Of a DNA stretch of 64,000 nucleotides, positions 45,137 to 59,841 are shown in pieces (the first letter of the stretch is position 1; every line of letters begins with the position of its first letter). A model generated the notes under the pieces. That model made no database searches. It had not been told where the DNA came from and worked only from the letters and a program-made list of their open reading frames with translations. Where the stretch lies: positions 10,531-74,530 of the forward strand of contig DATBLZ010000161.1 of assembly GCA_036555065.1 (NCBI GenBank), in the 5' to 3' direction. Both the position numbers and the translations under genes were made by a program. The DNA is from Gammaproteobacteria bacterium. Its GTDB lineage: Bacteria; Pseudomonadota; Gammaproteobacteria; Steroidobacterales; Rariloculaceae.

Positions 45137-45223
45137 GCCCAGGTGGCGGAACTGGTAGACGCGCTGGTTTCAGGTGCCAGTGGGGTAAAACCTGTGGAGG
45201 TTCGAGTCCTCTCCTGGGCACCA
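45137..45223 (+). tRNA. tRNA-Leu (anticodon CAG), type II with a long variable arm and encoded CCA
   Basis: The acceptor stem GCCCAGG pairs with CCTGGGC. The anticodon stem-loop is CTGGT-TTCAGGT-GCCAG. The T arm is GGAGGTTCGAGTCCTCT, and the 3' end is ACCA. Confidence 0.93.
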
Positions 45224-45706: not shown

Positions 45707-46525
45707 TCAGGGGCGGCGCCCCAGGGGTTGGCAGCGCCAGCAATAGTAGCCGGTCCGGCCCGCGAGCTTGAACGTCGCGAGGCGCTGTCGGCAACGCGGG
45801 CACCGCCCGCCGGGACTGCGCACGCGCAACAGGAACCCGCGCGGAAGACGCTGCGCGAGGTGCTCGGAGTCCGCCCGGCATTCGATGGCCGCTTTGAGTA
45901 CGCGGCCCGCGCTGCGATGGACGGCCCGGACTTGGGCGGACGTCATGCGCCCGACGGAGGTCAGCGGGTGCACGCGCGCTTGAAAGAGAATCTCATCCGC
46001 GTAGATGTTGCCGATGCCGGCCACGAGCGACTGGTCCATGAGCACCGCCTTGATCGGCGTCGCCGCGTTGCGACCCGCTATGATGCGCTCGAAGGCTCGC
46101 CGGTCGAACCGGCGATCGAGCGCGTCCGGCCCGAGACGGCGCTCCGCGACGAATGTGCGCACGTCATCCGTCAGGCCGATCCGCCCGAGCAGGCGCACGC
46201 TCGTGTAGGCGAGCCCACCGCCATCGCCGAAGTCGATGCGCAGCCGCGTGTATTGCGGCTTCTTGGCGCCTGTCGCAAGCGGTACGAGCGTGCCGGTCAT
46301 GCCGAAGTGCAGCGCAAGCCAACCGTTGCGCTCGAGCCCGAGGAACAGGTGCTTGCCATGGCGGCGACTCGAGACGAACCGGCTCCCTTCGAGTGCCCGG
46401 GCAAGGCCCGCGCGCGAGACGCTTTCGAGCAGGCGCGGCGCATCGAGCGCGACGCGCGCGATCCGTCTGTGGAACACCGCCCGGCTACGGCGCCTGAACA
46501 ACTCGACGTCCGGCAGCTCCGGCAT
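45707..46525 (-). CDS. Fpg/Nei family DNA glycosylase/AP lyase
   Basis: The ATG at 46525 gives MPELPDVELF (catalytic Pro2 and Glu3). H2TH region: LMDQSLVAGIGNIYADEILFQA. C-terminal zinc finger: CPRCRQ...YYCWRCQ. Confidence 0.88.
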   Translation of the reverse strand: MPELPDVELFRRRSRAVFHRRIARVALDAPRLLESVSRAGLARALEGSRFVSSRRHGKHLFLGLERNGWLALHFGMTGTLVPLATGAKKPQYTRLRIDFGDGGGLAYTSVRLLGRIGLTDDVRTFVAERRLGPDALDRRFDRRAFERIIAGRNAATPIKAVLMDQSLVAGIGNIYADEILFQARVHPLTSVGRMTSAQVRAVHRSAGRVLKAAIECRADSEHLAQRLPRGFLLRVRSPGGRCPRCRQRLATFKLAGRTGYYCWRCQPLGRRP

Positions 46526-46583
46526 GCGCGTCTCGCCTCGTTGGATCCGACGAGCCAGTCTAATCGTCGCGTCGCACGCCCGT

Positions 46584-46661
46584 CCTAAGTAGAAATACGA
46601 AGGGTCCACAGAACCCATGCCCCTTAGTCTTTAACGATGATGCAGCGCTTAACCTCGGCTG
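46584..46661 (+). repeat. Copy A of a roughly 78-nt imperfect direct repeat (nei / THUMP divergent intergenic region)
   Basis: cctaaGTAGAAATACGAA-[22-nt GC hairpin-prone core]-CTTAGTCTTtaaCGATGAtgcagcgcttaACCTCGGCTG. Compare with 50696-50774. Confidence 0.7.
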
Positions 46662-46690
46662 GGGCGGAACGCGCTCTTAGGGTGAATCGC

Positions 46691-47242
46691 ATGACTGAAT
46701 CCCCCTTCGACTGGAACGTCGTGGTTACGGTCTACGACGGCGAGTTCAACGAAGCCGTCCGGTTGCTCCGGCCCTACGGCGAAGTCGCGCGGACCGACTA
46801 CTGGAACGTGCTCGCAATGCGGGTCGAAGACGTTGCCGAATTCGTCCAGGCTCTTGAAAGCGCCACACGAGAGGACGCCACGATTCCCAATGCGGTCGCG
46901 AGAATCGTCCCGGTCACGGCCAAGTTCCGGTTTCAGTCGCCCGCGGAGTTCGAGGAGAAGACGCGCGCGCTCGTCGAACGATGGCTATCCGACCTCAAAG
47001 GCAAGAGCTTCCACGTGCGAATGCACCGAAGAGGTTTCAAGGGTCGATTATCGAGCCAGCACGAAGAGCAGTTCCTCGATCATCATTTGCTCGAGCGCTT
47101 GACACAGGAAGGCGGCCCGGGCCGAATCGATTTCGCCGATCCCGACGTGATCATCGCCGTCGAGACGCTTGGACAAACCGCGGGCTTGTCGCTCTGGACG
47201 CGCGAGCAGCGTCAATCGTTCGAGCTGCTCGATCTCGACTGA
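46691..47242 (+). CDS. Stand-alone THUMP-domain protein (putative RNA binding)
   Basis: From the ATG at 46691: MTESPFDWNVVVTV... is a ferredoxin-like N-terminal domain. FHVRMHRRGFKGRLSSQHEEQFL...IDFADPDVIIAVETLGQTAGLSLW follows the THUMP pattern. The 18 upstream codons in the track lie inside repeat copy A. Confidence 0.65.
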   Translation: MTESPFDWNVVVTVYDGEFNEAVRLLRPYGEVARTDYWNVLAMRVEDVAEFVQALESATREDATIPNAVARIVPVTAKFRFQSPAEFEEKTRALVERWLSDLKGKSFHVRMHRRGFKGRLSSQHEEQFLDHHLLERLTQEGGPGRIDFADPDVIIAVETLGQTAGLSLWTREQRQSFELLDLD

Positions 47243-47268
47243 CGACGCGCTATTGGCGTTTCCCGACC

Positions 47269-47994
47269 ATGCCCAGCGCAGCGATCCACATTGGGACATC
47301 GGGCTGGTCATACGAGCACCGGAAAGGAACCTTTTACCCGGAAGATCTCGGGAGCCGGGACATGCTCGGCCACTACGCCCAGCGTTTGCGCTCCGTCGAG
47401 ATCAACAGTTCCTTTTACCGGCTGCCGGACCGGGCGACCTTCGAGCATTGGCGAGATGCCGTGCCTGACGGATTCGTGTTCAGCACGAAGGCGAGCCGCT
47501 ACATCACGCACATGAAGAAGCTCAAGAACCCGACGGCGAGCGTTCGCCGGTTCTTCACGCGCGTCGGCGCGCTGGGCCACACGCTGGGACCGATTCTCTT
47601 CCAATTGCCGCCGCGCCGGTCCTTCCACGAGCGCCGGCTCGTCGACTTCCTCGATCATCTGCCTGCGAAATATCGCTATGCCTTCGAATTCAGGGACCCG
47701 ACTTGGCTCAATGATCGCGCGTTTGCAGCGCTCAGGCGGCACAACGCGGCTTTGTGCATCTACGATCTCGCCGGCTTCAGGTCGCCCCTCGAGATCACAG
47801 CCGGTTTCGTCTACCTGCGTCTTCACGGCCCCGGCACGGCCTACGCGTGCCGCTACGAAACGCATGCGCTGGCGCGCTGGGCCAAGCGGATCTCGACCTG
47901 GTCTGAATCCGGCCGCACCGTGTACTGCTATTTCGACAACGATGAGCGCGGCTATGCAGTGGACAACGCATTGTGCCTAAGAGCGATGCTATGA
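47269..47994 (+). CDS. DUF72 (YecE/UPF0759) family protein
   Basis: From the ATG at 47269: IHIGTSGWSYEHRKGTFYP...VEINSSFYRLP...FVFSTKASRYITH...ILFQLPP...YCYFDND. Confidence 0.85.
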   Translation: MPSAAIHIGTSGWSYEHRKGTFYPEDLGSRDMLGHYAQRLRSVEINSSFYRLPDRATFEHWRDAVPDGFVFSTKASRYITHMKKLKNPTASVRRFFTRVGALGHTLGPILFQLPPRRSFHERRLVDFLDHLPAKYRYAFEFRDPTWLNDRAFAALRRHNAALCIYDLAGFRSPLEITAGFVYLRLHGPGTAYACRYETHALARWAKRISTWSESGRTVYCYFDNDERGYAVDNALCLRAML

Positions 47995-48103
47995 CGTCCG
48001 CGAGAGCGGGCGACGTAAACGCCGATCGCTCGAGTCCGTACTATATAAGGAGTGGACCGTCTCACGCGCGTGTGGAGTCCATCATCGACGGGCAAGGCGT
48101 GGG

Positions 48104-48457
48104 TCAAAACACCAGAACCCTATCTGCGGCGAGCGTTTCGGCCGCGAGCATATCCATCGTGCTTCGCTTTGCGCCGTCGATGACGTCCTCCTCGCCGATG
48201 CCGCGTGCCTCCATGCATATCCCGCACAACAACACCTGCGCCTTCTCAATCATCAAACGTTTCAACATGTGCTCCATGTTGTAGTAGCCGGCCGGTGTCT
48301 TCTGTCCCTTGCGCGCGGCGACGACGGCATCGGCCATGAGGAACACGACGACTTGCGCGGGCGGATCGCTTGCCGCCAATGCTTGCGCGAGTCGCAGGGC
48401 GTTGTAGCAGCGCTCCGTGCCATATGGCGGGTCGTTAAGAATGAGCAGAGCTTTCAT
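48104..48457 (-). CDS. DsrE/DsrF-like sulfur-relay family protein
   Basis: MKALLILNDPPYGTERCYNALRLA...VLLCGICMEARG. The ATG at 48457 lies 9 nt after AGGAG. The track start is a TTG two codons upstream. Confidence 0.7.
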   Translation of the reverse strand: MKALLILNDPPYGTERCYNALRLAQALAASDPPAQVVVFLMADAVVAARKGQKTPAGYYNMEHMLKRLMIEKAQVLLCGICMEARGIGEEDVIDGAKRSTMDMLAAETLAADRVLVF

Positions 48458-48925
48458 CGACAAGAACTCCTGTGTTTTCCCAGAAGCTACATCGTGCGCC
48501 GACCGCGCCCCTTCGCCCCAGACCTTGGAAACAACGGCCTCAGCGTGGGAAGATCGGCGGCGGGCCCCCGGCGGTCAATACGTAGCTGCCGCGGCGCTGC
48601 CAATCGGGTACGGGTAAACCGCTATCGCCCCTTGCGCGCCTCGGTGCCAGCGTTGAGACACGTTGCTGACCGCGGATCTCGGGGTGTGGTGCACCGCTTG
48701 AGCGCATGAAACTTCACGCGCCGCGCGCGCACCGTATAGAGGCGGCATCATCGATCTCGCACAGCGCAGCAATCGGGTTCACGTATGGAAGAGATGTTCA
48801 TTTGGAAATTGACAGGAAACGACGGAATATCGCGGTGGCGCAAATCGTCGAACGGAGCCGCCACGACAGGAATAGGCCACTCGAGGTCCTCGAGCCCTCG
48901 CAGCCGGCGATGCTAACCACGGATG

Positions 48926-49525
48926 CTACTGCCGAGCACCGACTGGCAGTAACGCGAGCGGGCTCTCGCTCGGCGGCAGCTCGAGCACGTCTCGCACGCG
49001 CTCGTCCTTGAATGCCCCGATGATCACCGTGCCGAGACCGAGGGACTGCGCCTCGAGATAGATGTTCTGGGCGGCATGACCCACCTCCATATGGACGTAG
49101 CGGTCGCCACGAGAGCCGTACTTCGCTGAGGTTCGCCCGTAAACGGCAACAACAACGAGGATGGCCGGGGCCCCCGTCACCGCACTTTGTCCGAGCGCGG
49201 CTCCGCCAAGCGCCCGGCGCCGATCACCGGAGCAATGAAGCCGAAGCCGATGGCCGCGGGGGTCGTATCGGTAGACGCCGGGCGCGACCTGCTCCACGCT
49301 TCCCGCGACCAGATAGAGCTCGAGCGGATAGAGCCCGCCGGCTGACGGGGCCGTTCGTTCGCCCGTCGACGCCGTCAGACCTTGTGCGGCCCAGAGTAGC
49401 TGGCCTACGGATGCAAGCGAGAGCGACGCGGCGCGGAATTCGCGCACAGAGCGCCTCTCACGCAGACTCGCCTCGACGGAGCACGCGCTCCGGAACTTCG
49501 GCTTGGGCAAGAGGGTGTCTGTCAT
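48926..49525 (-). CDS. SagB-type dehydrogenase / nitroreductase family protein
   Basis: From the ATG at 49525: RERRSVREF...LGQLLWAAQG...PSAGGLYPLELYLV...VHMEVGHAAQNIYLEAQSLGLGTVIIGAF. Confidence 0.75.
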   Translation of the reverse strand: MTDTLLPKPKFRSACSVEASLRERRSVREFRAASLSLASVGQLLWAAQGLTASTGERTAPSAGGLYPLELYLVAGSVEQVAPGVYRYDPRGHRLRLHCSGDRRRALGGAALGQSAVTGAPAILVVVAVYGRTSAKYGSRGDRYVHMEVGHAAQNIYLEAQSLGLGTVIIGAFKDERVRDVLELPPSESPLALLPVGARQ

Positions 49526-49621
49526 GTCTTTGACTCGCGTGCTCTGTTCACAGGGCGCTCTGCTCAGTGCCACTCTTTTCGAGATACGTCTAAAGCGCCT
49601 TGGTTGGCCTCAGACGTCCCG

Positions 49622-50647
49622 TCACTCTTGCCGCACTGCGACCCTCCATGCTCCGGCGCCGCCGGCCGGGCGGCACTCGATCGCGAGCGGCAGGAATTGC
49701 CGAACGACTTCGATATTCGTCAGCGTATGGCGGCTCGGCGGCATAGTCATGAAGCTGCCGGCGCCGGCAAGCGCGAACGGCAGCAGCAACTGATCGGCCA
49801 GATGAACACCGATGGCAACGCCGGCGCTCAGATAGGCCTTGGCGGCGTCAACGACGGCCTGGGCCACGCTCTCCGCGGGCACGCCGCGACGGCCGAAGGC
49901 CGTGAAGGCCTCAGTGAGCGCCTCGCTGATAACGAACGCGCTCACGGCGTTCCCCGGCCCCAGGGTGTCCTGCACGAGGCGAATGCGCACCGACGCGGGC
50001 CCGAAACCGAGCCCCTGCGCGAGCACCGCCGCTTCGCGCTCGGCGATGTGGCGTGGCAGCTTGCTGAGCAGGACTTCCGCCTCGAGACGCTGCAGCGGGC
50101 CGCGCATCTCAAGATGGAGCGCCTCGAGCCGTGCCGCTGGCGCGACGCGCACGCGCACGCGGCCGCCGCCCGCTGGCTCGAAGCCGATACGCTCGAGCTC
50201 GATCGAGATCCGCGGACCCATGCGTTCGATGAGCGGCAGGTAAGCCCGCGCCAGGAAGTCGAACGTCGGCGCGCGCGGATTGTGCGTTCCGCCCTCGAGC
50301 AAGAGCTCCGAGCCCGCCCTCGCCGTCAAGAGCGCCGGAAGCACGGTTTGCAGCACCAGGCTCGTGCTGCCGGCCGTACCGATCGCAAAGCGATAGCTGC
50401 CGGGCTTGATGTCACCGGGAACGAACGTGAGGTCCTGCCCGTTTAGCGCGGCACCACGAACTTCGGCGCCGGAGACCTCAGCCGCCGCTCGGACGGCCGC
50501 GAGATGCTGGGGCCGAAGCCCGGGCCTCGGCCGCCGCGCCCGGATGTTGACGATGCGGCAGGGGCGCCGTTCACACAGCGCCAACGCGACGGCCGTGCGC
50601 AGGATTTGCCCGCCGCCTTCACCGGTCGAACCGTCGATCGTGATCAT
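49622..50647 (-). CDS. rtcA: RNA 3'-terminal phosphate cyclase
   Basis: 341 aa. MITIDGSTGEGGGQILRTAVALALCERRPCRIVNIRARRPRPGLRPQHL...LADQLLLPFALA matches the RtcA family, including the adenylylated-His region. Confidence 0.9.
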   Translation of the reverse strand: MITIDGSTGEGGGQILRTAVALALCERRPCRIVNIRARRPRPGLRPQHLAAVRAAAEVSGAEVRGAALNGQDLTFVPGDIKPGSYRFAIGTAGSTSLVLQTVLPALLTARAGSELLLEGGTHNPRAPTFDFLARAYLPLIERMGPRISIELERIGFEPAGGGRVRVRVAPAARLEALHLEMRGPLQRLEAEVLLSKLPRHIAEREAAVLAQGLGFGPASVRIRLVQDTLGPGNAVSAFVISEALTEAFTAFGRRGVPAESVAQAVVDAAKAYLSAGVAIGVHLADQLLLPFALAGAGSFMTMPPSRHTLTNIEVVRQFLPLAIECRPAGGAGAWRVAVRQE

Positions 50648-50695
50648 CGTTCAATCAACAGACCCGCAAGTGTATTCGTCGAGCCGCTCGCGGTG

Positions 50696-50774
50696 TCTAG
50701 GTAGAAATACGAACGGCCCACGGGGGCCGCGCGGCTTAGTCTTCAAACGATGAGTCTCAGCATTACCTCGGCTG
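50696..50774 (+). repeat. Copy B of the roughly 78-nt imperfect direct repeat (rtcA / PEBP divergent intergenic region; includes the first 8 PEBP codons)
   Basis: tctagGTAGAAATACGAA-[22-nt GC core]-CTTAGTCTTcaaaCGATGAgtctcagcattACCTCGGCTG. Confidence 0.7.
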
Positions 50775-51226
50775 CGTTTGGCGATAACGGAGAGATTCCG
50801 GCCATTCATACCTGCGAGGGGGAGAATGCGTCGCCACCATTGAGCTTTTCGGGCGTGCCCGAGAACGTCGCGAGCCTGGCGCTGATTGTCGACGATCCGG
50901 ATGCGCCGGACCCGCGCGCGCCGAAAACGACGTGGGTGCACTGGATTCTTTACGACATTCCTCCCGATTGCCCAGGCCTGCCGGAGGCGGTCGCGACGAG
51001 CGCGCTGCCGAAAGGATCGAGACAAGGCAAGAACGATTGGCGCCGTACCGACTACGGCGGGCCTTGTCCGCCGATCGGCCGGCATCGATACTTCCACAAG
51101 CTTTATGCGCTCGACGTACGATTGGGCGATCTCAAGACGCCAAGCAAGGCCACGCTCGAACGTGCGATGGATGGCCACGTGGTCGCGAAGGCCGCGCTGA
51201 TCGGCACCTACGAGAAGCACGGGTAG
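50750..51226 (+). CDS. YbhB/YbcL family PEBP (Raf kinase inhibitor-like) protein
   Basis: MSLSITSAAFGDNGEIPAIHTCEGENASPPLSFSGVP...LIVDDPDAP...WVHWILYDIP...YGGPCPPIGRHRYFHKLYALD. Confidence 0.88.
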   Translation: MSLSITSAAFGDNGEIPAIHTCEGENASPPLSFSGVPENVASLALIVDDPDAPDPRAPKTTWVHWILYDIPPDCPGLPEAVATSALPKGSRQGKNDWRRTDYGGPCPPIGRHRYFHKLYALDVRLGDLKTPSKATLERAMDGHVVAKAALIGTYEKHG

Positions 51227-51252
51227 CGCTCCGTGCTCCGCGGCTGGCACCC

Positions 51253-53175
51253 ATGCATGAAGACCGCGTCCTCGCAAAGCTCGAAGGGCACAGCCGCATC
51301 CTGCTGACGGGCGCGATCGGCGCCGGGAAGTCGACGCTCGCGGCTCTGCTCGGTGCGGCCCTCAATCGGGAGAGTCGCGCGTGCGCGTGCGTCGGCTGCG
51401 ATCCGGGCTCGCCGGCCTTCGGTGTCCCGGGTGCCGTGTGCCTCGCCGGGTGGCGGGACGGGGCGTGGGCGCTCGTGGATTTCGAGCCCTTGTGCAGTCT
51501 AGACGCGGCGCGCTTTCGCTTGCCGCTGATCCAGTGCGTGGCACGTCTACTGGAGCGCACGGCCTACGAGCGCGTGCTGTTCGATGGTCCCGGGGTCGTT
51601 CGCGGCGTCGCCGGAGCCGAGCTCCTTGCCGGGCTCGTCGCAGCCGCGCGGATCGACGTCGTCCTCGCACTCGAGCGTTCCGGCCGCGTCGGCGAGCTCG
51701 ATGCCGAGCTCGCCGCGCTCGCGGTACCCGTGCACCGTGTTCCGGCCGCCGCCGAGGCGCACGCGCCGAGCAAGCGGGTCCGGGCACGCCGGCGAACGTC
51801 ACTCTGGGACGCGCATCTCAGTGGCGCTGACGAATATCGCATCGATCTGCGAAGCCTGTCGTGCGTCGGCACGCCCCCGCCACACGACGCGGCGGACGCA
51901 TGGGCTGGGCGCCAAGTAGCGCTCTTGCGTGACCAGAAATGCGTGGCGTTCGGCGAGGCTGCAAGCGTCGAGGGAAAGACGTTGAGAGCGCGGCTGCGCG
52001 GCGCTCCGTCCAGCGCGAGCGCGCTCCTCGTGCGTGATGCGCAGCGCGGCGTGCATGGCCTGCTCGAGACCGCGCGTCCGTTTGCCGCCGACGTCACCGA
52101 CCTATCAGCCAGGCGGAATGCGCATCCGCCGAGCGCCGGGTTCGGCCCGCGCCCTGCCGCGAAAGTCGGACCGTTCACCGCCGCGCTCATCAACGGCGTC
52201 TTTGGCGATCCCCTGCTGCTCGTGCGGCTGCGCCATGGACGGCGCTGTCTGCTGTTCGATCTGGGCGAGGCCGGACGCCTGCCCGCGCGGACCGCGCATG
52301 CGGTGACCGACGTCTTCATCAGCCACGCCCACATCGATCACATCGCGGGTTTCATGTGGTTTCTTCGCTCGCGAATCGGCGAGTTTCCACCATGTCGCGT
52401 CTACGGCCCCTCGGGTCTGGCGAATAACGTTGCGGGCATGATCGCGGGCGTCCATTGGGACCGCGTGGGCGAGCGCCGTCCGCGTTTCGAGGTCATGGAG
52501 CTGCACGGCGAGCACATTCTGCGCTTCGCCGTTTCCGCCGGCTGCGGCGCCCCGCGAGGTCTCGGGGAAGAAAGCGCGCCCGGTGGGATCCTGCTTGTCG
52601 ACTCGCTTTTCCAGGTTCGCGCAACCGTGCTCGATCACCGCACGCCGGTCCTGGCCTACGCGCTCGACCCGAGCACCGAGATCAAGGTGCGCAAGGACCG
52701 CCTCGCCGCGTCGGGCTTGCGACCCGGCCCTTGGCTCACGGAGCTCAAGCAAGCCATCGTCGAGCGCGAGGACGATGCGCTCCTCGAGCTGCCCGACGGC
52801 AGCACGAGGCGTGCCCAGGCGCTCGCCGACGAGCTCGTGATGGTCCGCCCCGGCGAGAGGCTCGCCTATGCCACCGACCTCGCCGATACGGCCGCGAACC
52901 GCGAGCGCCTGAGCGCGCTCGCCCGCGGCGCGCATACGTTCTTTTGCGAGGCGACTTTTTGCGAGTCCGACGCCGCGCGGGCCGCGCGCACGGGCCATCT
53001 TACGGCGCGCGCCTGCGGCGAGATCGCCACCGCGGCCGGCGTCGAGCGCCTGATCCCGTTCCATTTCTCGCGGCGCTACGAATCCAGTCCCGCGCGGGTC
53101 TACCGCGAAGTGCGCGCAGCCTGCTCGCGAGCGGTCGTGCCCCGCGGGATATCGGGCCTCGACGATGTCGGATGA
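51253..53175 (+). CDS. Fusion protein: N-terminal Clp1/Grc3/Nol9-like polynucleotide 5'-kinase and C-terminal RNase Z-like metallo-beta-lactamase
   Basis: 640 aa from the ATG at 51253, 26 nt after the PEBP stop. N-terminal half: Walker A LLTGAIGAGKSTL, CDPGSPAFGVPG (compare Clp1/Grc3 D-x-D-x-GQ) and VLFDGPGVVRGVAGAELLAGLVAAARIDVVLAL (compare Clp1 NTxGWVxGxG...VV.L). C-terminal half from about aa 305: DVFISHAHIDHIAGF (HxHxDH), LRPGPWLTELKQ and a terminal HFSRRY. Confidence 0.75.
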   Translation: MHEDRVLAKLEGHSRILLTGAIGAGKSTLAALLGAALNRESRACACVGCDPGSPAFGVPGAVCLAGWRDGAWALVDFEPLCSLDAARFRLPLIQCVARLLERTAYERVLFDGPGVVRGVAGAELLAGLVAAARIDVVLALERSGRVGELDAELAALAVPVHRVPAAAEAHAPSKRVRARRRTSLWDAHLSGADEYRIDLRSLSCVGTPPPHDAADAWAGRQVALLRDQKCVAFGEAASVEGKTLRARLRGAPSSASALLVRDAQRGVHGLLETARPFAADVTDLSARRNAHPPSAGFGPRPAAKVGPFTAALINGVFGDPLLLVRLRHGRRCLLFDLGEAGRLPARTAHAVTDVFISHAHIDHIAGFMWFLRSRIGEFPPCRVYGPSGLANNVAGMIAGVHWDRVGERRPRFEVMELHGEHILRFAVSAGCGAPRGLGEESAPGGILLVDSLFQVRATVLDHRTPVLAYALDPSTEIKVRKDRLAASGLRPGPWLTELKQAIVEREDDALLELPDGSTRRAQALADELVMVRPGERLAYATDLADTAANRERLSALARGAHTFFCEATFCESDAARAARTGHLTARACGEIATAAGVERLIPFHFSRRYESSPARVYREVRAACSRAVVPRGISGLDDVG

Positions 53176-53310
53176 ACCATGCGTGGAGCTGGTCGAATGG
53201 AGGCTGCCAGCCCTCGAGCTCCGCTGAGCCGGCTTTCGGCGCGCGCATTCATCGGGGCTGAAGCTCTTGACGAGCTTCTTGTGCGCGATGCGCCCATCGT
53301 TGAACGGTCT

Positions 53311-53578
53311 TCAACAAGGCAATGAGTGCAGCTTCTTCATGACTTCGCGGAGAAACGTTGGAAGATCGCGAAGCACGCCGGCGCTGATCAGGATCTGCGG
53401 ACCGTGACAGATCGCGAACACGGGCTTTTTCGCCCGGAAGAAGGCACGCACGACCCCCAGCACGGCCGGGGAATTGGAGGAGCGATTGGGGCGCTTGGCC
53501 GCCTGGGAGCAGCAGCCCGCCATGCTTGCCCGTAATGCGGCCCGGCCCGAGCGAGGCGATGTCCACGCCGATGCCTTC
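53311..53578 (-). pseudogene. DJ-1/PfpI family gene remnant
   Basis: KKPVFAICHGPQILISAGVL (nucleophile elbow) and DLPTFLREVMKKL (family C-terminus) share one frame, but the roughly 45 aa normally between them are missing. The upstream ITGKHG / LLLPGG block lies in a different frame. Confidence 0.5.
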
Positions 53579-53612
53579 TGCGGATTCACGTGCGCATCCA
53601 TCTCGGGATCGG

Positions 53613-54006
53613 CTACCGCAGCACCTTCGCCATGCCGTCGCGTGCGATCTCGACGTCGACGCCCCATTCCTCGCCGAGGCGAGAAACTCTCGCGCGGACG
53701 GTACGCTCGTCGGCCGCGACGATGCCCATGCCGCAGTGCGTGACCATCATGGGGGGAACGCCCTCTTCCCGGCACCACTTCAGTTGCTCGCCAATCGTCG
53801 TATGACCGGCGCGCGTGCCAGTGGCTTTCTCGGTGTGAACGATCGGCCGGAATGACGCCGCCCCGTCGCCGACATAAAGCCGAGCGCCCCGCAGCGCTGC
53901 GTGCCTCTCCGGGATAGAAAGAACGTCCGGCACCCAGAACACAATGACCGTTGTGGCCGTGATGCGGTAGCCGACCGCAGCGCGTGCCCAGAAACGTGAT
54001 CTTCAT
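53613..54006 (-). pseudogene. MBL-fold hydrolase gene remnant (internal deletion plus frameshift)
   Basis: The ATG at 54006 gives MKITFLGTR, a typical family N-terminus. About 10 codons later the homologous frame jumps by 1 nt straight to ...GYRITATTVIVFWVPDVLSIPERHAALRGARLYVGDGAA...HTTIGEQLKWCREEGVPPMMVTHCG...EIARDGM, the family's C-terminal half. The HxHxDH region is absent. Confidence 0.6.
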
Positions 54007-54023
54007 GGCGGTTGCGGCGACCC

Positions 54024-55070
54024 TCACCACTGACAGTCGATGCCATTCTCGATGCTCTTGATGAACGCGCTCGCAGCATGTCCCGTAACATCGATCCTCT
54101 GTGCCCGGTCGTTACGGGACATGCCGAAACCGCCCCGCTCCCTGCCGGAACCGTCATCCGTGCATTGCAGCCCAAGCAAATACGTCAATCCGCTGCAGAT
54201 GCAGCGGCGATAACGTTGAGCACGATCGTCGTGCGACGCACACGCCAGCGCATAGGCCTCGTTCAAGCCCTCGAGCGCACAAGCCGCCTCCACCGAGAAC
54301 AGTTCGCCCGGGCGGCGCTCGACGGACTCGTAGAAGCCCTGGTCGGCGATCTGGTCGTGGATGCGACAGACGTAGTCCATGACTTGCTGCTTGAGCGCGG
54401 GGCTTCGTGCACACTCGAACAGACGCCGGCAAGCCTGGGATTGCCAATTGCCGAAAAAAACGAGTGCGTTCTCGCTGACACGGTCGCGCGCGTAGTATTG
54501 CGTGTTGTAGAAGGAGAAACCGCGTTCCACGCTTTGCAGGTAGCGTGCCTCCGGCAGCTGGCGATAGGCTTCCATTAGCGCGAGCATGGCCTCACCCGCA
54601 TACAGCTCCTCGCCGGTATCCGGCATATCGTGAAAGTACACCTTGTACGAGCCGTCTCGTCTTTGTTGACGGAGTATCCCCTCGGCGAGTGCGCTGATCT
54701 GCCGCGTGCTGATCGGCGGCGGGGCGCACAACAGAGCCAGGGCCATGAAGGCGCTATGGGCGATCGATGAGGGCTCCTGGAGGCGGCGTGAATCGAGAAT
54801 CATGTAGCCATCGCGGTCCAGGAGGTAGCCGTCGTAGTGCGCCAAGGACTTGCGAACCAACGGGCCAAGCTCGCGGGTCCCGAGAAAATCGCCGAGTAGC
54901 TCCGCGTCCCACACCGAAGCGATGTCCCGGATCGGGGATTTCTCACGTACGAAGGCGTCAGTCTGAGGGAGGTAGAGGTACTCGAACATCCCCGTGTCCG
55001 GATTCACCATACCCTCGTACCATCGATAAACGAGACGCAGGCGCTGCGTAAGTACCTCAGCCGTTTTCAT
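54024..55070 (-). CDS. Hypothetical protein, possibly an alpha/alpha-toroid fold
   Basis: 348 aa, all-helical by eye, with repeated aromatic/acidic hairpin-like segments. I do not recognise a family. GC is lower than in the core genes. Confidence 0.5.
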   Translation of the reverse strand: MKTAEVLTQRLRLVYRWYEGMVNPDTGMFEYLYLPQTDAFVREKSPIRDIASVWDAELLGDFLGTRELGPLVRKSLAHYDGYLLDRDGYMILDSRRLQEPSSIAHSAFMALALLCAPPPISTRQISALAEGILRQQRRDGSYKVYFHDMPDTGEELYAGEAMLALMEAYRQLPEARYLQSVERGFSFYNTQYYARDRVSENALVFFGNWQSQACRRLFECARSPALKQQVMDYVCRIHDQIADQGFYESVERRPGELFSVEAACALEGLNEAYALACASHDDRAQRYRRCICSGLTYLLGLQCTDDGSGRERGGFGMSRNDRAQRIDVTGHAASAFIKSIENGIDCQW

Positions 55071-55494
55071 GCGGGGCCGCCTCGCTGTTCGGGCCGCTCA
55101 GCGTGAATTTCCCCGAAGACGGCGGCCGTCGAGTATAGGTACTTGCCGAGCGCACCGATCGAAGACGCGGCGAAGCCTCCGCACGTCCGCAAATACGTGC
55201 AAACCGCAATCGCGGCGGGCTGCGAGTCGGGCTAGGATACCAATAGACGTCATGCGCAAGGGACGGAAGCTGATGAGCACCAGCGTGGGGACGTCATGGG
55301 TGATTCTCTCGTCAAATCCGTCGTCGTCAAGGGCGGCGGGAATTACGCTCGTGGTGTTGCCGGCAACTCGCCGTGTTCGCTTAGCGTCATTGCGCGAATA
55401 CTTCGGTCAGCCCTGTGACTTGGTGAGCCCTTCTCATCGCGGACCAGCGCGGAGCGTTTTTCCGTGAATACAGCGGCAGGCAAGGAATGTTCCA

Positions 55495-56061
55495 ATGCAA
55501 GTACCACTGGAAATTAGGTTCCACAACATGGATCGCTCCGAAGCGATCGAATCAGCCGCTCGCGCGAACGCAATGAAACTCGAACGTTTCGCCGAGCACA
55601 TTGTCAGCTGTCGCGTGACTGTGGAAGCGCCTCACAAGCATCATCGCCAGGGCAAGCTCTTTCACGTGGTGGTTGACGTTCGCCTGCCGGGCGGTGAGCT
55701 CGTGGTGAGCCGCGACCCAGACCAGCATCATGCCCATGAGGACGTACACGTCGCACTACGTGACGCTTTCAAGGCCGTGCGACGCCAAGTCCAAGACTAC
55801 GTCCGCGTGCAGCGCGGAAAGCTCAAGACTCACGAGGTCCCGCCATACGGCAGGATCGTTGCTTTGCATCCAGACGAGGACTATGGGCGTATCGCAACAC
55901 CGGACGGACGCGAGATCTACTTTCACCGCAATAGCGTCGTGAACGCCGATTTCGACCGCTTGAAGGTCGGCCTCGAAGTCAGGATCAGCGAGGAGGCGGG
56001 GGATCGCGGACCGCAGGCCAGCACCGTGTACGTCATCGGCAAGCACCACTTGGTCGGCTGA
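55495..56061 (+). CDS. HPF/RaiA-like ribosome-associated factor fused to a cold-shock (CSD) domain
   Basis: The N-terminus MQVPLEIRFHNMDRSEAIESAARANAMKLERFAEHIVSCRVTVE...VHVALRDAFKAVRRQVQDY is S30AE/HPF-like. The C-terminus YGRIVALHPDEDYGRIATPDGREIYFHRNSV...LKVGLEVRISEEAGDRGPQASTVYVI is CSD-like. Confidence 0.75.
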   Translation: MQVPLEIRFHNMDRSEAIESAARANAMKLERFAEHIVSCRVTVEAPHKHHRQGKLFHVVVDVRLPGGELVVSRDPDQHHAHEDVHVALRDAFKAVRRQVQDYVRVQRGKLKTHEVPPYGRIVALHPDEDYGRIATPDGREIYFHRNSVVNADFDRLKVGLEVRISEEAGDRGPQASTVYVIGKHHLVG

Positions 56062-56107
56062 GCAAACAGGAAACCGCGCCGATCCGCATCAAGCATGAGC
56101 GCGGCAG

Positions 56108-56524
56108 ATGCGAGCCCGCTACGAGCACTTCGCGCACCGCGCCGATATCGGGGTCCGCGGATTCGGTGGGTCCGGAGCGCAGGCTTTCGAGCAAGCCGCG
56201 CTTGCGATGACGGCCGCAGTCACCGATCTCGAAACCGTAGCCGCCTTGCAGGAGGTCGACGTCTTGCTGCGGGGCACCGGACCGCGAGCTGCTGCTCGCC
56301 GACTGGCTGAACGCGATCGTCTACGAAATCGCGACGCGCCACATGGTGTTTGGACGTTTCCAAGTCCACATCGAGGAGTGCAGTCTGCACGGCAAGACCC
56401 GGGGCGAAGAGATCAGCGCCGCCAAGCACGAGCCAGGCGTGGATTGATCGGTGGGTACGAGTTCTTACGTATACTCCCGTCCCCGAGGTCGCGCGAGAAT
56501 GCCTTCCAGCGCGAAGTTGATCGT
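56108..56524 (+). pseudogene. Archease (RtcB ligase cofactor family) requiring two compensating frameshifts
   Basis: Frame A (from 56108): [55 protein letters not shown]. Frame B (from about 56271): [58 protein letters not shown], then a stop at 56445. Frame A again: [10 protein letters not shown]...AFQREVD. The first shift falls at a GGGG run (56271-56274). Confidence 0.6.
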
Positions 56525-56552
56525 CCGCTTTTCTTTCAAATCCAGAGAGGTC

Positions 56553-56936
56553 ATGACGCAACAGAGCCAACAGCGATCGCCCCTCATCAAGCATATCTCC
56601 TGGGGGCGAATGACGGTCGATAACGTCGGTGCGGGAAAAGACTTCAAACTCTGGCCCGGCGGTGGACGAGCGTGGGATTGGACGGAAACCGGCACGCATC
56701 ACGTTCCGGGCATTCAACCGGCCGATGTCGAGGAGCTGCTGGGTCACGGCTGCAACATCATCGTTCTGAGCCGCGGCGTGCTGATGAGACTGGGCACCTG
56801 CAAGGAGACGCTCGAGCTGCTGAAAGCCAAGGGCGTGGAGGTGAGAACGGCGGAAACGATGGAGGCTGCAAGAGTGTACAACCGGCTCGCTTCAAGCGGC
56901 CAGGCCGTCGGGGGCCTGTTTCATTCGACGTGCTGA
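56553..56936 (+). CDS. Mth938-like (DUF498) domain protein
   Basis: From the ATG at 56553 (AGAGAGG upstream): ...[52 protein letters not shown]...IIVLSRGV...[23 protein letters not shown]. Confidence 0.7.
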
Positions 56937-56966
56937 ATCGTACAATCAATGCCATTGGGAGCTGCC

Positions 56967-57206
56967 ATGCCATTCCGGGAAGGTCAAGAAGTTCGGATCA
57001 AAGCGCTGCTTAAACCCAAACGTTGGGAGCGCCACGAAGCCATCTCCTCCAGGGAACCGGTCGTCGGTGATATCGGGCTCGTGGTCGACGTCGATGCCAG
57101 CACCGGAAGAATGATCTACACAGTCGAGTGCATCGACACCCATGGCTCGGAGCGCTGGCTCACGCAATTCGAACAGGACGAGCTCGAGCCGATTCCAGCG
57201 CGATAG
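56967..57206 (+). CDS. Small hypothetical protein, DUF4926-like beta-barrel pattern
   Basis: 79 aa from the ATG at 56967. ...VVGDIGLVVDVDASTGRMIYTVECIDTHGSERWLTQFEQDELEPI. The assignment is weak. Confidence 0.4.
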   Translation: MPFREGQEVRIKALLKPKRWERHEAISSREPVVGDIGLVVDVDASTGRMIYTVECIDTHGSERWLTQFEQDELEPIPAR

Positions 57207-57428: not shown

Positions 57429-58271
57429 CTACATCCGAGGACTCGCGCCGTGCTTCTCGGCTTTCCGATAGACAGCGTGTCGGTCAGACCACGTGGAGAA
57501 ACCGATCGTGCCGGGCGGGAGCTTCTCCTTTCGGCCCAAGACCAACGCCCCTCCGTCACGGAGGCTGCCGCAGAGCGTCCATGCCGCCGCGGCTTGTTGC
57601 TCGAGCCCAAAGTACGTGAAGGCCACGTTCCGGCAGCTGATCAGATGGAATGATCCCCCGACCGGGCCGTGCCGCAGATCGTGCGAGCGGAAACTGATCC
57701 GGGCTTTGTAGGCGGCCTTCAGACGATACAGGCCGTGCTCCTCATCGAAGGCGTCAGCGAGCCAGGCGCGCGGAACGTGCTTCACGGCGCCCCCCGTATA
57801 GCAGGCGGCTTTCGCGCGCTCGAGCAGGTGCGGATCGATATCCGTGCCGACGACCTGGAGATCGAGGCGCGGAAACCGTGTTGCGACGAGGAAGTGCCAG
57901 ACGAGCGCCAATGTATAAGGCTCCTCTCCCGACGCGCAGCCCGCGCTCCATGCCTTAAGCTCGGATTCGCCGCGAGCGGCTGCGCCGGTCGCGAGCTCCG
58001 GCAGCACGACGCGTCCGAGGAATCCAAAGACCTCGCTGTCGCGGTTGAAGCTCGAGATCGTCACTGTGCAGAAGGAATCCGCAACGGCCCATTCCTCGGG
58101 GTGGTTTTCGAGATACGAGCGGTACTCCCGTCCGTCCGACAAGCACAGCTCGGCCAGTCGGCGAGCGATCCGCTTGCAGACCTGCTTCCGCACCGCCCGA
58201 AAGCCGGCCCATCGCAGGCCGAGCCGCGGCAACAGCCACGTCAACAGCGCGACACAGTCATCATCTCTCAT
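57429..58271 (-). CDS. CheR-family protein-glutamate methyltransferase-like protein (orphan)
   Basis: 280 aa. KAWSAGCASGEEPYTLA is the SAM-binding motif, and ISCRNVAFTYF is also present. There are no other che genes nearby. Confidence 0.8.
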   Translation of the reverse strand: MRDDDCVALLTWLLPRLGLRWAGFRAVRKQVCKRIARRLAELCLSDGREYRSYLENHPEEWAVADSFCTVTISSFNRDSEVFGFLGRVVLPELATGAAARGESELKAWSAGCASGEEPYTLALVWHFLVATRFPRLDLQVVGTDIDPHLLERAKAACYTGGAVKHVPRAWLADAFDEEHGLYRLKAAYKARISFRSHDLRHGPVGGSFHLISCRNVAFTYFGLEQQAAAAWTLCGSLRDGGALVLGRKEKLPPGTIGFSTWSDRHAVYRKAEKHGASPRM

Positions 58272-58530: not shown

Positions 58531-59748
58531 TTACCGCCGCCGCCCTTCGGCATCCATGCGGTCGCGCGCGACAGCGCGAGCCTCGTGCACGGACAGCCAC
58601 TTCAGCACGTCTTCGCGCCGCAGCAGGCCGACGAGCTTGCCGTGCTCGAGAACCGGCAGCTGATTGACGTCCAGCTGGGCGAGCATCGTCAGCGCCTCGC
58701 TCGCATCCTGGCTCGCGGACACGCTGACCAAGTCGGAAGCAGGCGTCATGATGTCGCGCGCCGTGATCCGCTCCCAGGCGCTGCGCTCGGCCTTCCGTAA
58801 ATCCCGCAAGCAGACCATGCCCAATAGACGGCCGTCCTCTTCGACGGGAAACACGCGTTGGCCGCTCGCCATCAGATGCACGTCCACGAGCTCGCTGATG
58901 GGAATGGCCGGCCCGACGCTCGTGAAGCGCGTCTGCATGATGCGGGCAACCGGAACGTCCTCGAGCGTCTCCTTGACGAGCAGCTGGCGGTAGCTCATGA
59001 GCGCGGCGTTGTTCAGGAACCAGCCGATGAACATGAGCCACAGACCGCCGATCGGTCCGCCGCCGAGCAGCGGTACATGCAAGCCAAAAAGCATGAGCAC
59101 GCCCGTGCCCATGAGCAGCCAGGCGAAGCCCTGCCCTCCGGCCGTGGCCCAGCGCGTGGCTCTCCGCAGGTTCCCCGTGATGCCCCACAGCACCGCGCGC
59201 AGCACGCGCCCGCCGTCCAGCGGGAAACCCGGCACGAGGTTGAAGATCGCGAGCAGAATGTTGACGGGTCCGAGCCATAGCAGAAGAGTCGCGAGCGGCG
59301 ACAGCGCGGCAAGCGCCTCGCGCGGGTTCTCGACGTCGATCTCGATCGGGCCGGCGACGACGCCTGCGAGGAACAGAAAACCCATCCCGAGCACCAGGCT
59401 CGTGATCGGTCCGATCGCCGCCATCACGAGCTCGGAACGCCACGTTGGGGGCTCGTTCTCCATCTGCGCCACGCCGCCGAACATGAACAGCGTGATGCGG
59501 CGCACGTGGATGCCGCCGGCGCGGCCCACGAGCGCATGCGAGAGCTCGTGGGTGAGGACCGAAGCGAAGAACAGCACCGCCGCGGCCACGGCCGTGCTCC
59601 ACGCGAGCGCCGGATTCCACTCCGGATGCCAGGACGGAAATACGCCGCCCGCCAGGCTGAAGGTGATCAACGTGAAGATGATCAGCAGGCTCCAATCGAC
59701 GACGACCTCGATGCCGGCGATTCGGCCCAGGCGGATTCCGTTTGTCAT
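58531..59748 (-). CDS. Site-2 protease (M50) family metalloprotease with a C-terminal CBS pair
   Basis: From the ATG at 59748: MTNGIRLGRIAGIEVVVDWSLLII... HELSHALVGR is the HExxH motif, with FNLVPGFPLDGGRVLR and then two CBS domains. Confidence 0.88.
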   Translation of the reverse strand: MTNGIRLGRIAGIEVVVDWSLLIIFTLITFSLAGGVFPSWHPEWNPALAWSTAVAAAVLFFASVLTHELSHALVGRAGGIHVRRITLFMFGGVAQMENEPPTWRSELVMAAIGPITSLVLGMGFLFLAGVVAGPIEIDVENPREALAALSPLATLLLWLGPVNILLAIFNLVPGFPLDGGRVLRAVLWGITGNLRRATRWATAGGQGFAWLLMGTGVLMLFGLHVPLLGGGPIGGLWLMFIGWFLNNAALMSYRQLLVKETLEDVPVARIMQTRFTSVGPAIPISELVDVHLMASGQRVFPVEEDGRLLGMVCLRDLRKAERSAWERITARDIMTPASDLVSVSASQDASEALTMLAQLDVNQLPVLEHGKLVGLLRREDVLKWLSVHEARAVARDRMDAEGRRR

Positions 59749-59841
59749 CTCAGCACGAAGCCCCCTTTCGGCGGCTGGCACGATTCATATGGGCCGGTTG
59801 TCTCGGCCCCGTCGCCCGTCGTCATCGATTCCGCCGGCGCC

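Follow-up and report, generated by a model that had tools for sequence, protein, structure and literature searches.

The window analysed here, a 64,000-nucleotide stretch of a 3.09-Mb gammaproteobacterial metagenome-assembled genome of 65.2% GC (G000:C113:10531-74530), carries a group of genes for the processing of RNA ends. A first-pass annotation described the group as an island with an archease gene and no RNA ligase, either a decaying RtcB-type repair system or a module that works without a dedicated ligase. The genes in question encode the RNA 3'-terminal phosphate cyclase RtcA, a stand-alone THUMP RNA-binding protein, a fusion of a Clp1-family P-loop kinase to an RNase Z-like metallo-beta-lactamase (MBL) domain, and a fusion of HPF/RaiA to a cold-shock domain (HPF-CSD), and beside them lie the remains of an archease gene. 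Gene identities were assigned by Pfam and NCBIfam profile searches with curated cut-offs. G000 denotes the window's own genome, other G numbers denote comparison genomes and L numbers comparison loci.

The rtcA gene (49622-50647, minus strand) is intact. Its product matches the Pfam RTC profile over its full length with 247.4 bits (cut-off 27) and RTC_insert with 39 bits, and it scores 403.5 bits against the NCBIfam equivalog NF003246 (cut-off 352), which bears out the first identification. A motif scan, as distinct from a formal alignment, places the motif GVHLADQLL at residues ~290-298, and by its likeness to the E. coli motif it may hold the adenylylated catalytic histidine. A nitroreductase (NTR) gene (48926-49573; Pfam, 115 bits) lies downstream of rtcA on the same minus strand.

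The stand-alone THUMP protein (46709-47242, plus strand; ~180 aa) scores 19.5 bits against Pfam PF02926, below the gathering cut-off of 20.6. Its open reading frame (ORF) opens at 46637, and homologues align only from residue ~25. The AlphaFold (AF2) model has a pLDDT of 94.7 and displays an NFLD+THUMP module. When this model was compared with the PDB by Foldseek, the top 22 matches (E <= 7e-4, probability 1.0) were all THUMP-containing enzymes or THUMPD1. Because these top fold matches are all NFLD+THUMP modules, the ORF encodes a true stand-alone THUMP protein, and the earlier assignment is upheld by predicted fold despite the sub-threshold sequence score. The family comprises 510 representative clusters, is named 'THUMP domain-containing protein' at NCBI, and was found in 13 of 399 sampled Gammaproteobacteria, the window's own genome not counted. 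Behind the THUMP gene lies a gene for a DUF72 protein (47335-47994, plus strand; Pfam DUF72, 242 bits). DUF72 is a recurrent THUMP partner, and the order THUMP>DUF72 is also present in L029 and L040.

The kinase-nuclease fusion (51253-53175, plus strand; 640 aa) is likewise real, with the motifs of both halves intact. The kinase half matches PF16575 CLP1_P with 53.9 bits (cut-off 26.6) and holds the Walker A motif GAIGAGKS at residue 20, and the MBL half matches Lactamase_B_2 with 48.4 bits and holds the motif HAHIDH. The solved structures closest to the MBL half are RNase Z (2cbn) and ELAC1. Since the protein scores below the RNase Z equivalog cut-offs (PRK02126, 287.9 vs 315; TIGR02651, 103.9 vs 292.95) while these remain its nearest structures, we describe it as RNase Z-like and do not assign it to RNase Z. 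The part of the first description that does not stand is the frame of 747 aa starting at 50932. More than 1100 homologues are known, of ~640-670 aa, and the first 300 nt of that frame are filled by another gene, so the longer frame is over-extended and the fusion starts at ~51253. The gene that fills this space, directly upstream of the fusion, encodes a YbhB/YbcL (PEBP) family protein (PBP; 50750-51226, plus strand; TIGR00481, 123 bits). It is also gene-called in L029 and L030, and it adjoins the fusion-CheR pair in L122.

In relatives, the stop codon of the fusion overlaps the start of a CheR-family methyltransferase gene. Of this gene, only the initial ~80 nt (~27 codons) survive in the window (53165-53246, plus strand), recognised by blastn and by alignment with L029, L028 and L017; the relic includes a TGG->TGA change, and homology stops abruptly at 53246. 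Behind it begins a low-GC segment of gene wrecks and orphan ORFs. Here lie a DJ-1/PfpI fragment (53311-54030, minus strand; Pfam partial match and tblastn) that matches positions 73-114 of the 165 in the profile, the gene being intact at 175 aa in G001, and an orphan ORF (54024-55070, minus strand) with coding-like GC3, which has 348 aa here and 328 aa in the gene calls of JGI contigs. A CheR-family S-adenosylmethionine (SAM) methyltransferase gene stands further along the window in inverted orientation (57429-58271, minus strand; Pfam CheR, 130 bits; PRK10611, 65 bits vs a cut-off of 435) and shares 67% nucleotide identity (blastn) with the CheR gene behind the fusion in relatives. A simple inversion between the fusion and this gene was rejected, given the identity of only 67%, the separate 5' relic and the lack of convincing inverted repeats. 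A CheR-family gene stands immediately beside the fusion in seven loci, in tandem in L017, L028, L029, L030 and L122 and divergently in L034 and L035. The CheR-family neighbour of the fusion lies far under the CheR equivalog cut-off (PRK10611, 65 bits vs 435).

HPF-CSD (55495-56061, plus strand; 188 aa) is intact, and both halves of the fusion proposed at first exceed their Pfam cut-offs (PF02482 S30AE, 51.4 bits, cut-off 23.7; PF00313 CSD, 31.5 bits, cut-off 27). Its score against the equivalog TIGR00741 is 23.4 bits, below the cut-off of 40.9, and we therefore regard it as a divergent HPF/RaiA subfamily with a C-terminal cold-shock domain. The family has 2669 homologues, nearly all of 188 aa.

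The archease gene announced by the first-pass annotation is instead a pseudogene (56108 to ~56530, plus strand), beginning 47 nt behind HPF-CSD. Its reading frame shifts at least twice, a TGA interrupts it in frame at 56445, and the C-terminal part has decayed. Profile positions 1-53 are read in one frame and positions 45-108 in another, the second being truncated by the TGA; by manual reading of the translation, the TYT motif lies in the first frame again and the tail shows decay. The wreck is 51-57% identical to an intact archease on contig C2 of the same genome. The region 56050-56600 is 99.5-100% identical, without gaps, in four contigs from four metagenomes (L132-L135). Because the four contigs are independent, the breaks are genuine, and assembly error as their source was ruled out.

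We considered whether the archease is nevertheless expressed by two programmed ribosomal frameshifts, so that the locus would keep a working RtcB cofactor. The archease-like sequence can be traced across the frame changes near a GGGG run, and its stability across four assemblies would suit such a reading. However, the sequence holds an in-frame TGA, the last strand would need a third frame change, and the C-terminal ~25 residues are unrecognisable on manual reading of the translation. Moreover, gene callers find no archease ORF in L132-L135, and an intact archease stands beside rtcB on C2. We know of no archease that uses recoding, and we consider this explanation very improbable. The archease relic, the CheR 5' relic and the DJ-1/PfpI fragment thus make the pseudogene remnants noted at first sight real.

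In L038, L043, L072 and L074 the place occupied by the wreck holds an intact archease gene followed by rtcB, in the order HPF-CSD>archease>RtcB that the window begins. In the window, the expected place of rtcB behind the wreck is occupied by a gene for a DUF498 (Mth938-like) protein (56499-56936, plus strand; Pfam DUF498, 50.7 bits), for which L132 and L134 have gene calls of 145 aa. A tblastn search found no rtcB remnant in the window (best E 0.27).

The ligase on a second contig

An intact archease-rtcB pair lies at G000:C2:17968-19799. RtcB scores 565 bits, and archease, immediately upstream, scores 136.3 bits over positions 1-136. The first-pass claim that there is no ligase therefore holds for the window but not for the genome, and a pair of this kind elsewhere had been named beforehand as evidence against it. 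The picture of a decaying RtcB-type island fares similarly: locally it is apt, since a dead archease lies where relatives have archease>RtcB, but the genome as a whole retains the pair on C2. The paradox of a repair island without its ligase is one of ordinary gene relocation and pseudogenisation.

Other claims of absence extend to the whole genome. No activator of the RtcR type (CARF + sigma-54) was found, and a search for Pnkp, not aimed at Hen1, found none, the best match to TIGR04075 reaching 39.6 bits against a cut-off of 750. The genome has no dedicated ATP-dependent RNA ligase, the only PF09414-like match being LigD, and the orphan ORFs of the window (348, 132, 159/85 and 146 aa) match nothing in Pfam, NCBIfam or PDB and provide no ligase candidate. 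LigD (G000:C115:13784-16366; TIGR02776, 535 bits) is a non-homologous end-joining ligase with phosphoesterase and polymerase domains. About 1.7 kb upstream of it stands a DUF72 paralogue (G000:C115:11480-12070) that is 36% identical to the DUF72 protein of the window, and an association of DUF72 with genes that process nucleic-acid ends may be a more general one.

On C2 the gene order is hydrolase, DUF6763, an inserted PGA_cap gene, archease and RtcB. L038 has hydrolase, DUF6763, a DksA-like gene, HPF-CSD, archease and RtcB. Since the order on C2 mirrors that of L038, the working ligase sits in the conserved context, from which HPF-CSD is missing. The only HPF-CSD copy of the genome is the one in the window, next to the dead archease.

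Several further genes were observed around the ligase. At 14 kb from rtcB there is a gene for a plain HPF protein (G000:C2:33722-34081, minus strand), a paralogue that shares 65% identity with the HPF part of HPF-CSD. A beta-CASP/RMMBL (RNase J-like) gene (G000:C2:10255-11646, minus strand) is found at a distance of 6 kb from rtcB. An FtsH paralogue (G000:C2:14682-16514) lies 1.5 kb from rtcB, and in G108 another (L141, 12808-14658) lies between a fusion-DUF6763 pair and a THUMP-RtcA-archease-RtcB series. HSP20 genes recur near loci of the same families (L032, L037, L038, L128 and L155), and together the FtsH and HSP20 neighbours hint at a proteotoxic or heat-stress context.

The gammaproteobacterial RtcB proteins form two classes, one of ~565 bits and ~476 aa that is linked to archease and one of ~430 bits and ~410 aa that stands directly beside rtcA (example genomes are G364, G104, G200, G373, G090, G274, G355, G225, G319 and G368). 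THUMP, the fusion and HPF-CSD go with the long type.

Recurrence across Gammaproteobacteria

Neighbourhoods were surveyed around three anchors, namely HPF-CSD (83 metagenome loci, with 361 kb of flank), THUMP (12 loci) and the fusion or its stand-alone MBL homologue. RtcB lies within 4 kb of HPF-CSD in 14 of the 83 loci, usually as the immediate neighbour, and it is present in 8 of the 23 HPF-CSD loci that have at least 2 kb on both sides. By our own estimate, for a single-copy gene present in 34% of genomes, chance would place about 0.04 RtcB loci in 361 kb. The same 83 flanks contain archease in 9 loci, DUF6763 in 8, HSP20 in 7 and alpha/beta-hydrolase in 6, with THUMP in 2, RtcA in 1 and the fusion in 1. 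PolX/HHH-like genes were seen in 3 of the 83, and they may connect these genes to DNA-end repair; in the same-genus genome G001 (L017, 3678-5399), a PolX gene (Pol beta + PHP) stands divergent to the fusion.

The other anchors lead to the same families in other combinations. THUMP>RtcA tandems were found in L120, L123 and L127, which come from three unrelated gammaproteobacterial families, and in L127 the tandem continues as THUMP>RtcA>archease>RtcB, with a fusion-DUF6763 pair 8 kb upstream. L128 has RtcB<archease<THUMP, then a divergent CheR-family gene and then HPF-CSD, and L040 has HPF-CSD>DUF6763>THUMP>DUF72. In G240, HPF-CSD and DUF6763 lie in the vicinity of a THUMP>RtcA tandem. The fusion follows THUMP in tandem in L031 and RtcA in tandem in G099, forms tandems with DUF6763 in G291 and G108, and stands with CheR near THUMP in L122 (THUMP..fusion>CheR, with PBP alongside). 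In G435 (L154) the order is RtcA..DUF6763..HPF-CSD>M50>MBL. The nitroreductase gene recurs as well, in the order RtcA>NTR in L029 and L030, beside THUMP in L124 and in the vicinity of HPF-CSD in L077, L082 and L089. Only L029 and L030, which are 89% identical, keep the arrangement among close relatives, with THUMP-DUF72 followed by NTR-RtcA and PBP-fusion-CheR.

Phyletic profiles point the same way. Across 399 genomes, Fisher tests uncorrected for phylogeny, with carriers from many different families, associated THUMP with RtcA (10/13; odds ratio 46, p 2e-9), with the fusion or MBL homologue (9/13; odds ratio 32.5, p 5e-8) and with RtcB (11/13; odds ratio 11.3, p 2e-4). RtcB accompanies the fusion or stand-alone MBL homologue in 31 of 34 carriers (odds ratio 25, p 8e-13) and RtcA in 35 of 36 (odds ratio 89.6, p 6e-17).

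These data bear on the possibility that the window merely juxtaposes unrelated accessory genes in a rearranged, pseudogene-rich variable region by a tRNA gene, the RNA theme being a product of pattern-matching. We entertained this at first on the basis of poor synteny in G001 and L020-L028: RtcA is not beside the fusion in G001 or in the 88%-identical L028, and the distant fusion loci L020-L024 have no neighbours in common. The heterogeneous GC and the several gene wrecks of the window would also fit. However, the gene families recur as neighbours, in many different arrangements and directions, both in metagenome contigs and in gammaproteobacterial families that are unrelated to one another, and they co-occur strongly across genomes. 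In contrast, the internal controls RNase R, Fpg, DsrE and DJ-1 have zero occurrences in the 115 comparison loci of the three surveys. Chance was dropped as a working explanation after the neighbourhood surveys and phyletic tests, and we now regard it as quite unlikely. Synteny in relatives, which had been proposed as a check, thus indicates co-conservation across Gammaproteobacteria in many combinations, with close relatives differing in local order. That the genes belong together, as the first-pass annotation had supposed, is supported by independent comparative evidence, from recurrent adjacency and phyletic co-occurrence.

A second possibility is that THUMP, PBP, the fusion and a CheR-like methyltransferase, perhaps joined by RtcA, form an end-processing module of their own, for which RtcB is only a frequent co-resident. 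Such a module might resemble nuclease-kinase pairs such as Las1-Grc3 and combine the trimming or surveillance of tRNA 3' ends with phosphorylation at 5' ends and methylation. It would account for the fusion-CheR adjacency in both tandem and divergent arrangements, for THUMP directly upstream of the fusion in L031, for the 3 of 34 fusion-or-MBL genomes without RtcB, and for the presence of a 5'-kinase, whose chemistry opposes that of RtcB. Against this, 31 of the 34 carriers have RtcB, compared with 34% of genomes overall, and the fusion or MBL gene lies close to RtcA, DUF6763, HPF-CSD or archease-RtcB in G099, G108, G291 and G435. There is also no ATP-dependent RNA ligase in the genome for 5'-phosphate/3'-OH ends, LigD being the only match. 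We consider a ligase-independent role unlikely, and the suggestion that the genes work without a dedicated ligase does not agree with the frequency of RtcB among the carriers of RtcA and of the fusion.

A proposed network and its relation to known systems

Taken together, the comparisons suggest that the stretch is probably one half of a modular, RtcB-centred gene network for RNA repair and translation stress that recurs in environmental Gammaproteobacteria. Its likely members are the long, archease-dependent RtcB with archease, HPF-CSD, and the stand-alone THUMP protein, in many cases with DUF72 behind it. RtcA, commonly accompanied by a nitroreductase, and the fusion, often with a CheR-family methyltransferase and YbhB/PBP, would probably belong as well, as would DUF6763, alpha/beta-hydrolase and HSP20. 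The network appears to be split in this genome, the window having THUMP-DUF72, RtcA-NTR, PBP-fusion and HPF-CSD and the C2 locus having archease-rtcB, DUF6763 and the hydrolase.

A two-step history of insertion and then decay is, we infer, the simplest account of this arrangement. A second HPF-CSD>archease>rtcB cassette, probably foreign and lying in the low-GC segment, would have inserted behind the fusion and broken the ancestral fusion>CheR operon. Its archease and rtcB, being redundant, would then have decayed, and HPF-CSD would have been retained.

Within the proposed network, RtcB and archease would reseal breaks with 2',3'-cyclic-phosphate and 5'-OH ends in tRNA or rRNA, and RtcA would turn 3'-phosphate ends into ligatable cyclic ends. 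The biochemistry of sealing by RtcB with archease and of cyclisation by RtcA is established for these families. In ThiI, Trm11, TrmN and CDAT8, the THUMP domain recognises the acceptor/3'-CCA end of tRNA, and stand-alone Tan1/THUMPD1 acts as an adaptor for tRNA-modifying enzymes. Together with the THUMP>RtcA operons, this end recognition suggests that THUMP directs both RtcA and the RNase Z-like fusion towards the ends of tRNAs, and the protein may be a Tan1-like adaptor that presents acceptor ends to the cyclase and the nuclease-kinase alike. Cutting after the discriminator base, the RNase Z-like domain would remove unrepairable or damaged CCA ends and leave the CCA-adding enzyme a 3'-OH to work on. 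The Clp1 domain would phosphorylate 5'-OH fragments, either committing them to 5'-phosphate-dependent decay or opposing their religation. Meanwhile, HPF-CSD may hold ribosomes inactive during repair.

More specifically, THUMP might be the substrate-targeting subunit for RtcA and for the fusion and CheR at damaged tRNA acceptor ends, with HPF-CSD coupling ribosome parking to ligation by archease and RtcB. This would be an undescribed extension of RtcB/RtcA repair, and we put it forward tentatively, as a reading that is less likely than not.

Several points weigh against the network or its mechanism. RtcB requires a 5'-OH end, and a Clp1 5'-kinase would block its ligation and not help it, which is the weakest point of the mechanism. 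Both network and mechanism are predicted from gene arrangement and co-occurrence. A putative former rtcB in the window is deduced from relatives, no remnant of it surviving, and the Fisher tests ignore ecology as well as phylogeny. No network neighbour was found in 6 of the 12 THUMP loci, in 8 of the 12 full-length fusion loci or in most HPF-CSD loci, and a Geomonas THUMP locus has no repair neighbours. Finally, gene order varies within the genus, as in G001, which has PolX beside the fusion and no RtcA in its genome.

The locus belongs neither to the RtcR-rtcBA operon type nor to the Pnkp/Hen1 type. The RtcR-regulated rtcBA operon of E. coli and Salmonella is described in 'An RNA Repair Operon Regulated by Damaged tRNAs' (PMC7790460). 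As in that operon, RtcA and RtcB are used together here, as the 35 of 36 RtcA genomes indicate, and relatives such as G032 have the canonical rtcB-rtcA tandem. In contrast, this genome has no RtcR, rtcA is unlinked from rtcB, and RtcB is of the long, archease-paired type and not the shorter type that neighbours rtcA. THUMP, HPF-CSD, the fusion and DUF6763 are extra partners that are not part of the E. coli operon. The parallel with Pnkp/Hen1 logic is a possible one, in that the fusion combines a 5'-kinase with a phosphoesterase-type end-processing domain and adjoins a CheR-like SAM methyltransferase. However, the kinase has a Clp1 P-loop where Pnkp has a T4-PNK kinase, an MBL domain stands in place of the calcineurin-type phosphatase, the methyltransferase is of CheR and not Hen1 type, and there is no ligase domain.

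In archaea and Thermus, archease acts as the activator of RtcB. The C2 locus resembles this pair, with archease directly upstream of rtcB, and in relatives HPF-CSD or THUMP-RtcA is followed by archease>RtcB. The window differs in that its archease is dead with no rtcB behind it, and the pair as described has no link to a protein of the ribosome-hibernation type. A comparable coupling is found in the RtcB2-PrfH ribosome-repair module, which joins the gene of an RtcB ligase with that of a ribosome-binding factor (PMC9223846, PMC13166195). The likeness suggests, from gene arrangement, RNA repair within or alongside stalled ribosomes, although the partner here is HPF/RaiA-CSD and not a release-factor homologue and the class of RtcB differs.

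The fusion also recalls the eukaryotic nuclease-kinase pairs. Like Las1-Grc3/Nol9, and like CPSF73 with Clp1, it combines a Clp1_P kinase with a predicted RNA endonuclease, CPSF73 being of MBL fold as well. Unlike them, it is a single bacterial polypeptide with an RNase Z-type MBL, and its activity is predicted. Characterised prokaryotic Clp1 kinases include Ts-Clp1, and a survey of bacterial Clp1 proteins makes no mention of an MBL fusion (PMC6777427). The THUMP protein, labelled TAN1 by JGI, resembles Tan1/THUMPD1 as an NFLD+THUMP protein without a catalytic domain, and its fold matches the THUMP modules of Trm14, CDAT8, ThiI, Trm11 and THUMPD1. It differs in being bacterial and in having its genetic links with RtcA, with RtcB and with the RNase Z-like fusion, as putative partner enzymes, and not with an acetyltransferase.

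In the searchable literature, which did not cover the survey of Burroughs & Aravind 2016, no description of the extended partner set was found, nor anything relevant on THUMP with RtcB, on COG1818 or on HPF with RtcB, so that an earlier description of parts of the set is possible. RtcB-archease ligation and RtcA cyclisation are biochemically well characterised, far more so than their natural substrates, partners and regulation in bacteria beyond E. coli. Adjacency and co-occurrence now link four little-studied or uncharacterised families to RtcB and RtcA, namely the stand-alone THUMP protein, the Clp1::RNase Z-like fusion, HPF-CSD and DUF6763. This raises testable hypotheses of a THUMP-RtcA complex on tRNA ends and of HPF-CSD acting with RtcB on ribosomes. 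If THUMP targeting is true, RtcA would acquire a definite partner and class of substrates, and with them a clearer physiological role.

Composition, repeats and flanking genes

The stretch had been described as lower in GC than the core genes. Overall it is not distinct, with a GC of 0.643 against 0.652 for the genome, at the 32nd percentile of 2-kb windows. Its composition is heterogeneous and not that of a uniform island, a high-GC core from RtcA to the fusion (48.9-53.2 kb, 0.685) being flanked by parts of 0.61 to 0.62 (0.614 at 46.6-48.9 kb and 0.606 at 54.0-56.1 kb). A tRNA-Leu(CAG) gene (45137-45223, plus strand; ARAGORN; Rfam tRNA, 51.3 bits) serves as a landmark, and its membership of the system is without support. 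It was the sole match in an Rfam scan of 44.5-59 kb. The signs of a tRNA-gene genomic island were not found, there being no uniformly deviant GC and no integrase among the Pfam matches between 45 and 60 kb, and the repeats in the stretch are promoter-region duplicates and not att sites.

These duplicates form a direct repeat of ~115 nt (families D1 and D8) in two copies, 46549-46661 and 50661-50774 (both plus strand), that are 71-76% identical. Each copy takes in the promoter or 5' leader ahead of a gene, THUMP for the first and PBP for the second, together with the initial codons. The copies stand between divergent genes, Fpg and THUMP in the first case and RtcA and PBP in the second. These positions are kept in relatives, both in L029 and that of PBP in L028 and G001. 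The repeat holds CTAAG...GGGYCC-loop-GGRCCC...CTTAG, with compensatory changes in the inner hairpin, and may be a shared regulatory RNA or operator. A sigma-32-like reading was rejected, as the spacing did not fit. A whole-genome fuzzy search for the repeat core as a regulon motif returned only the two window copies and weak look-alikes (e.g. C2:11725), and no regulon emerged from it.

Three further genes lie in the neighbourhood. An Fpg/Nei gene (45707-46618, minus strand; Pfam/NCBIfam) precedes the first repeat copy. A gene for a DsrE-family protein (48104-48463, minus strand; Pfam DsrE, 87 bits), absent from the comparison loci, is probably a bystander. Beyond the inverted CheR gene, a gene for an M50 peptidase with CBS domains (58531-59781, minus strand; Pfam) is a possible peripheral member, and an M50 gene is also found near HPF-CSD in L093, as it is in G435.

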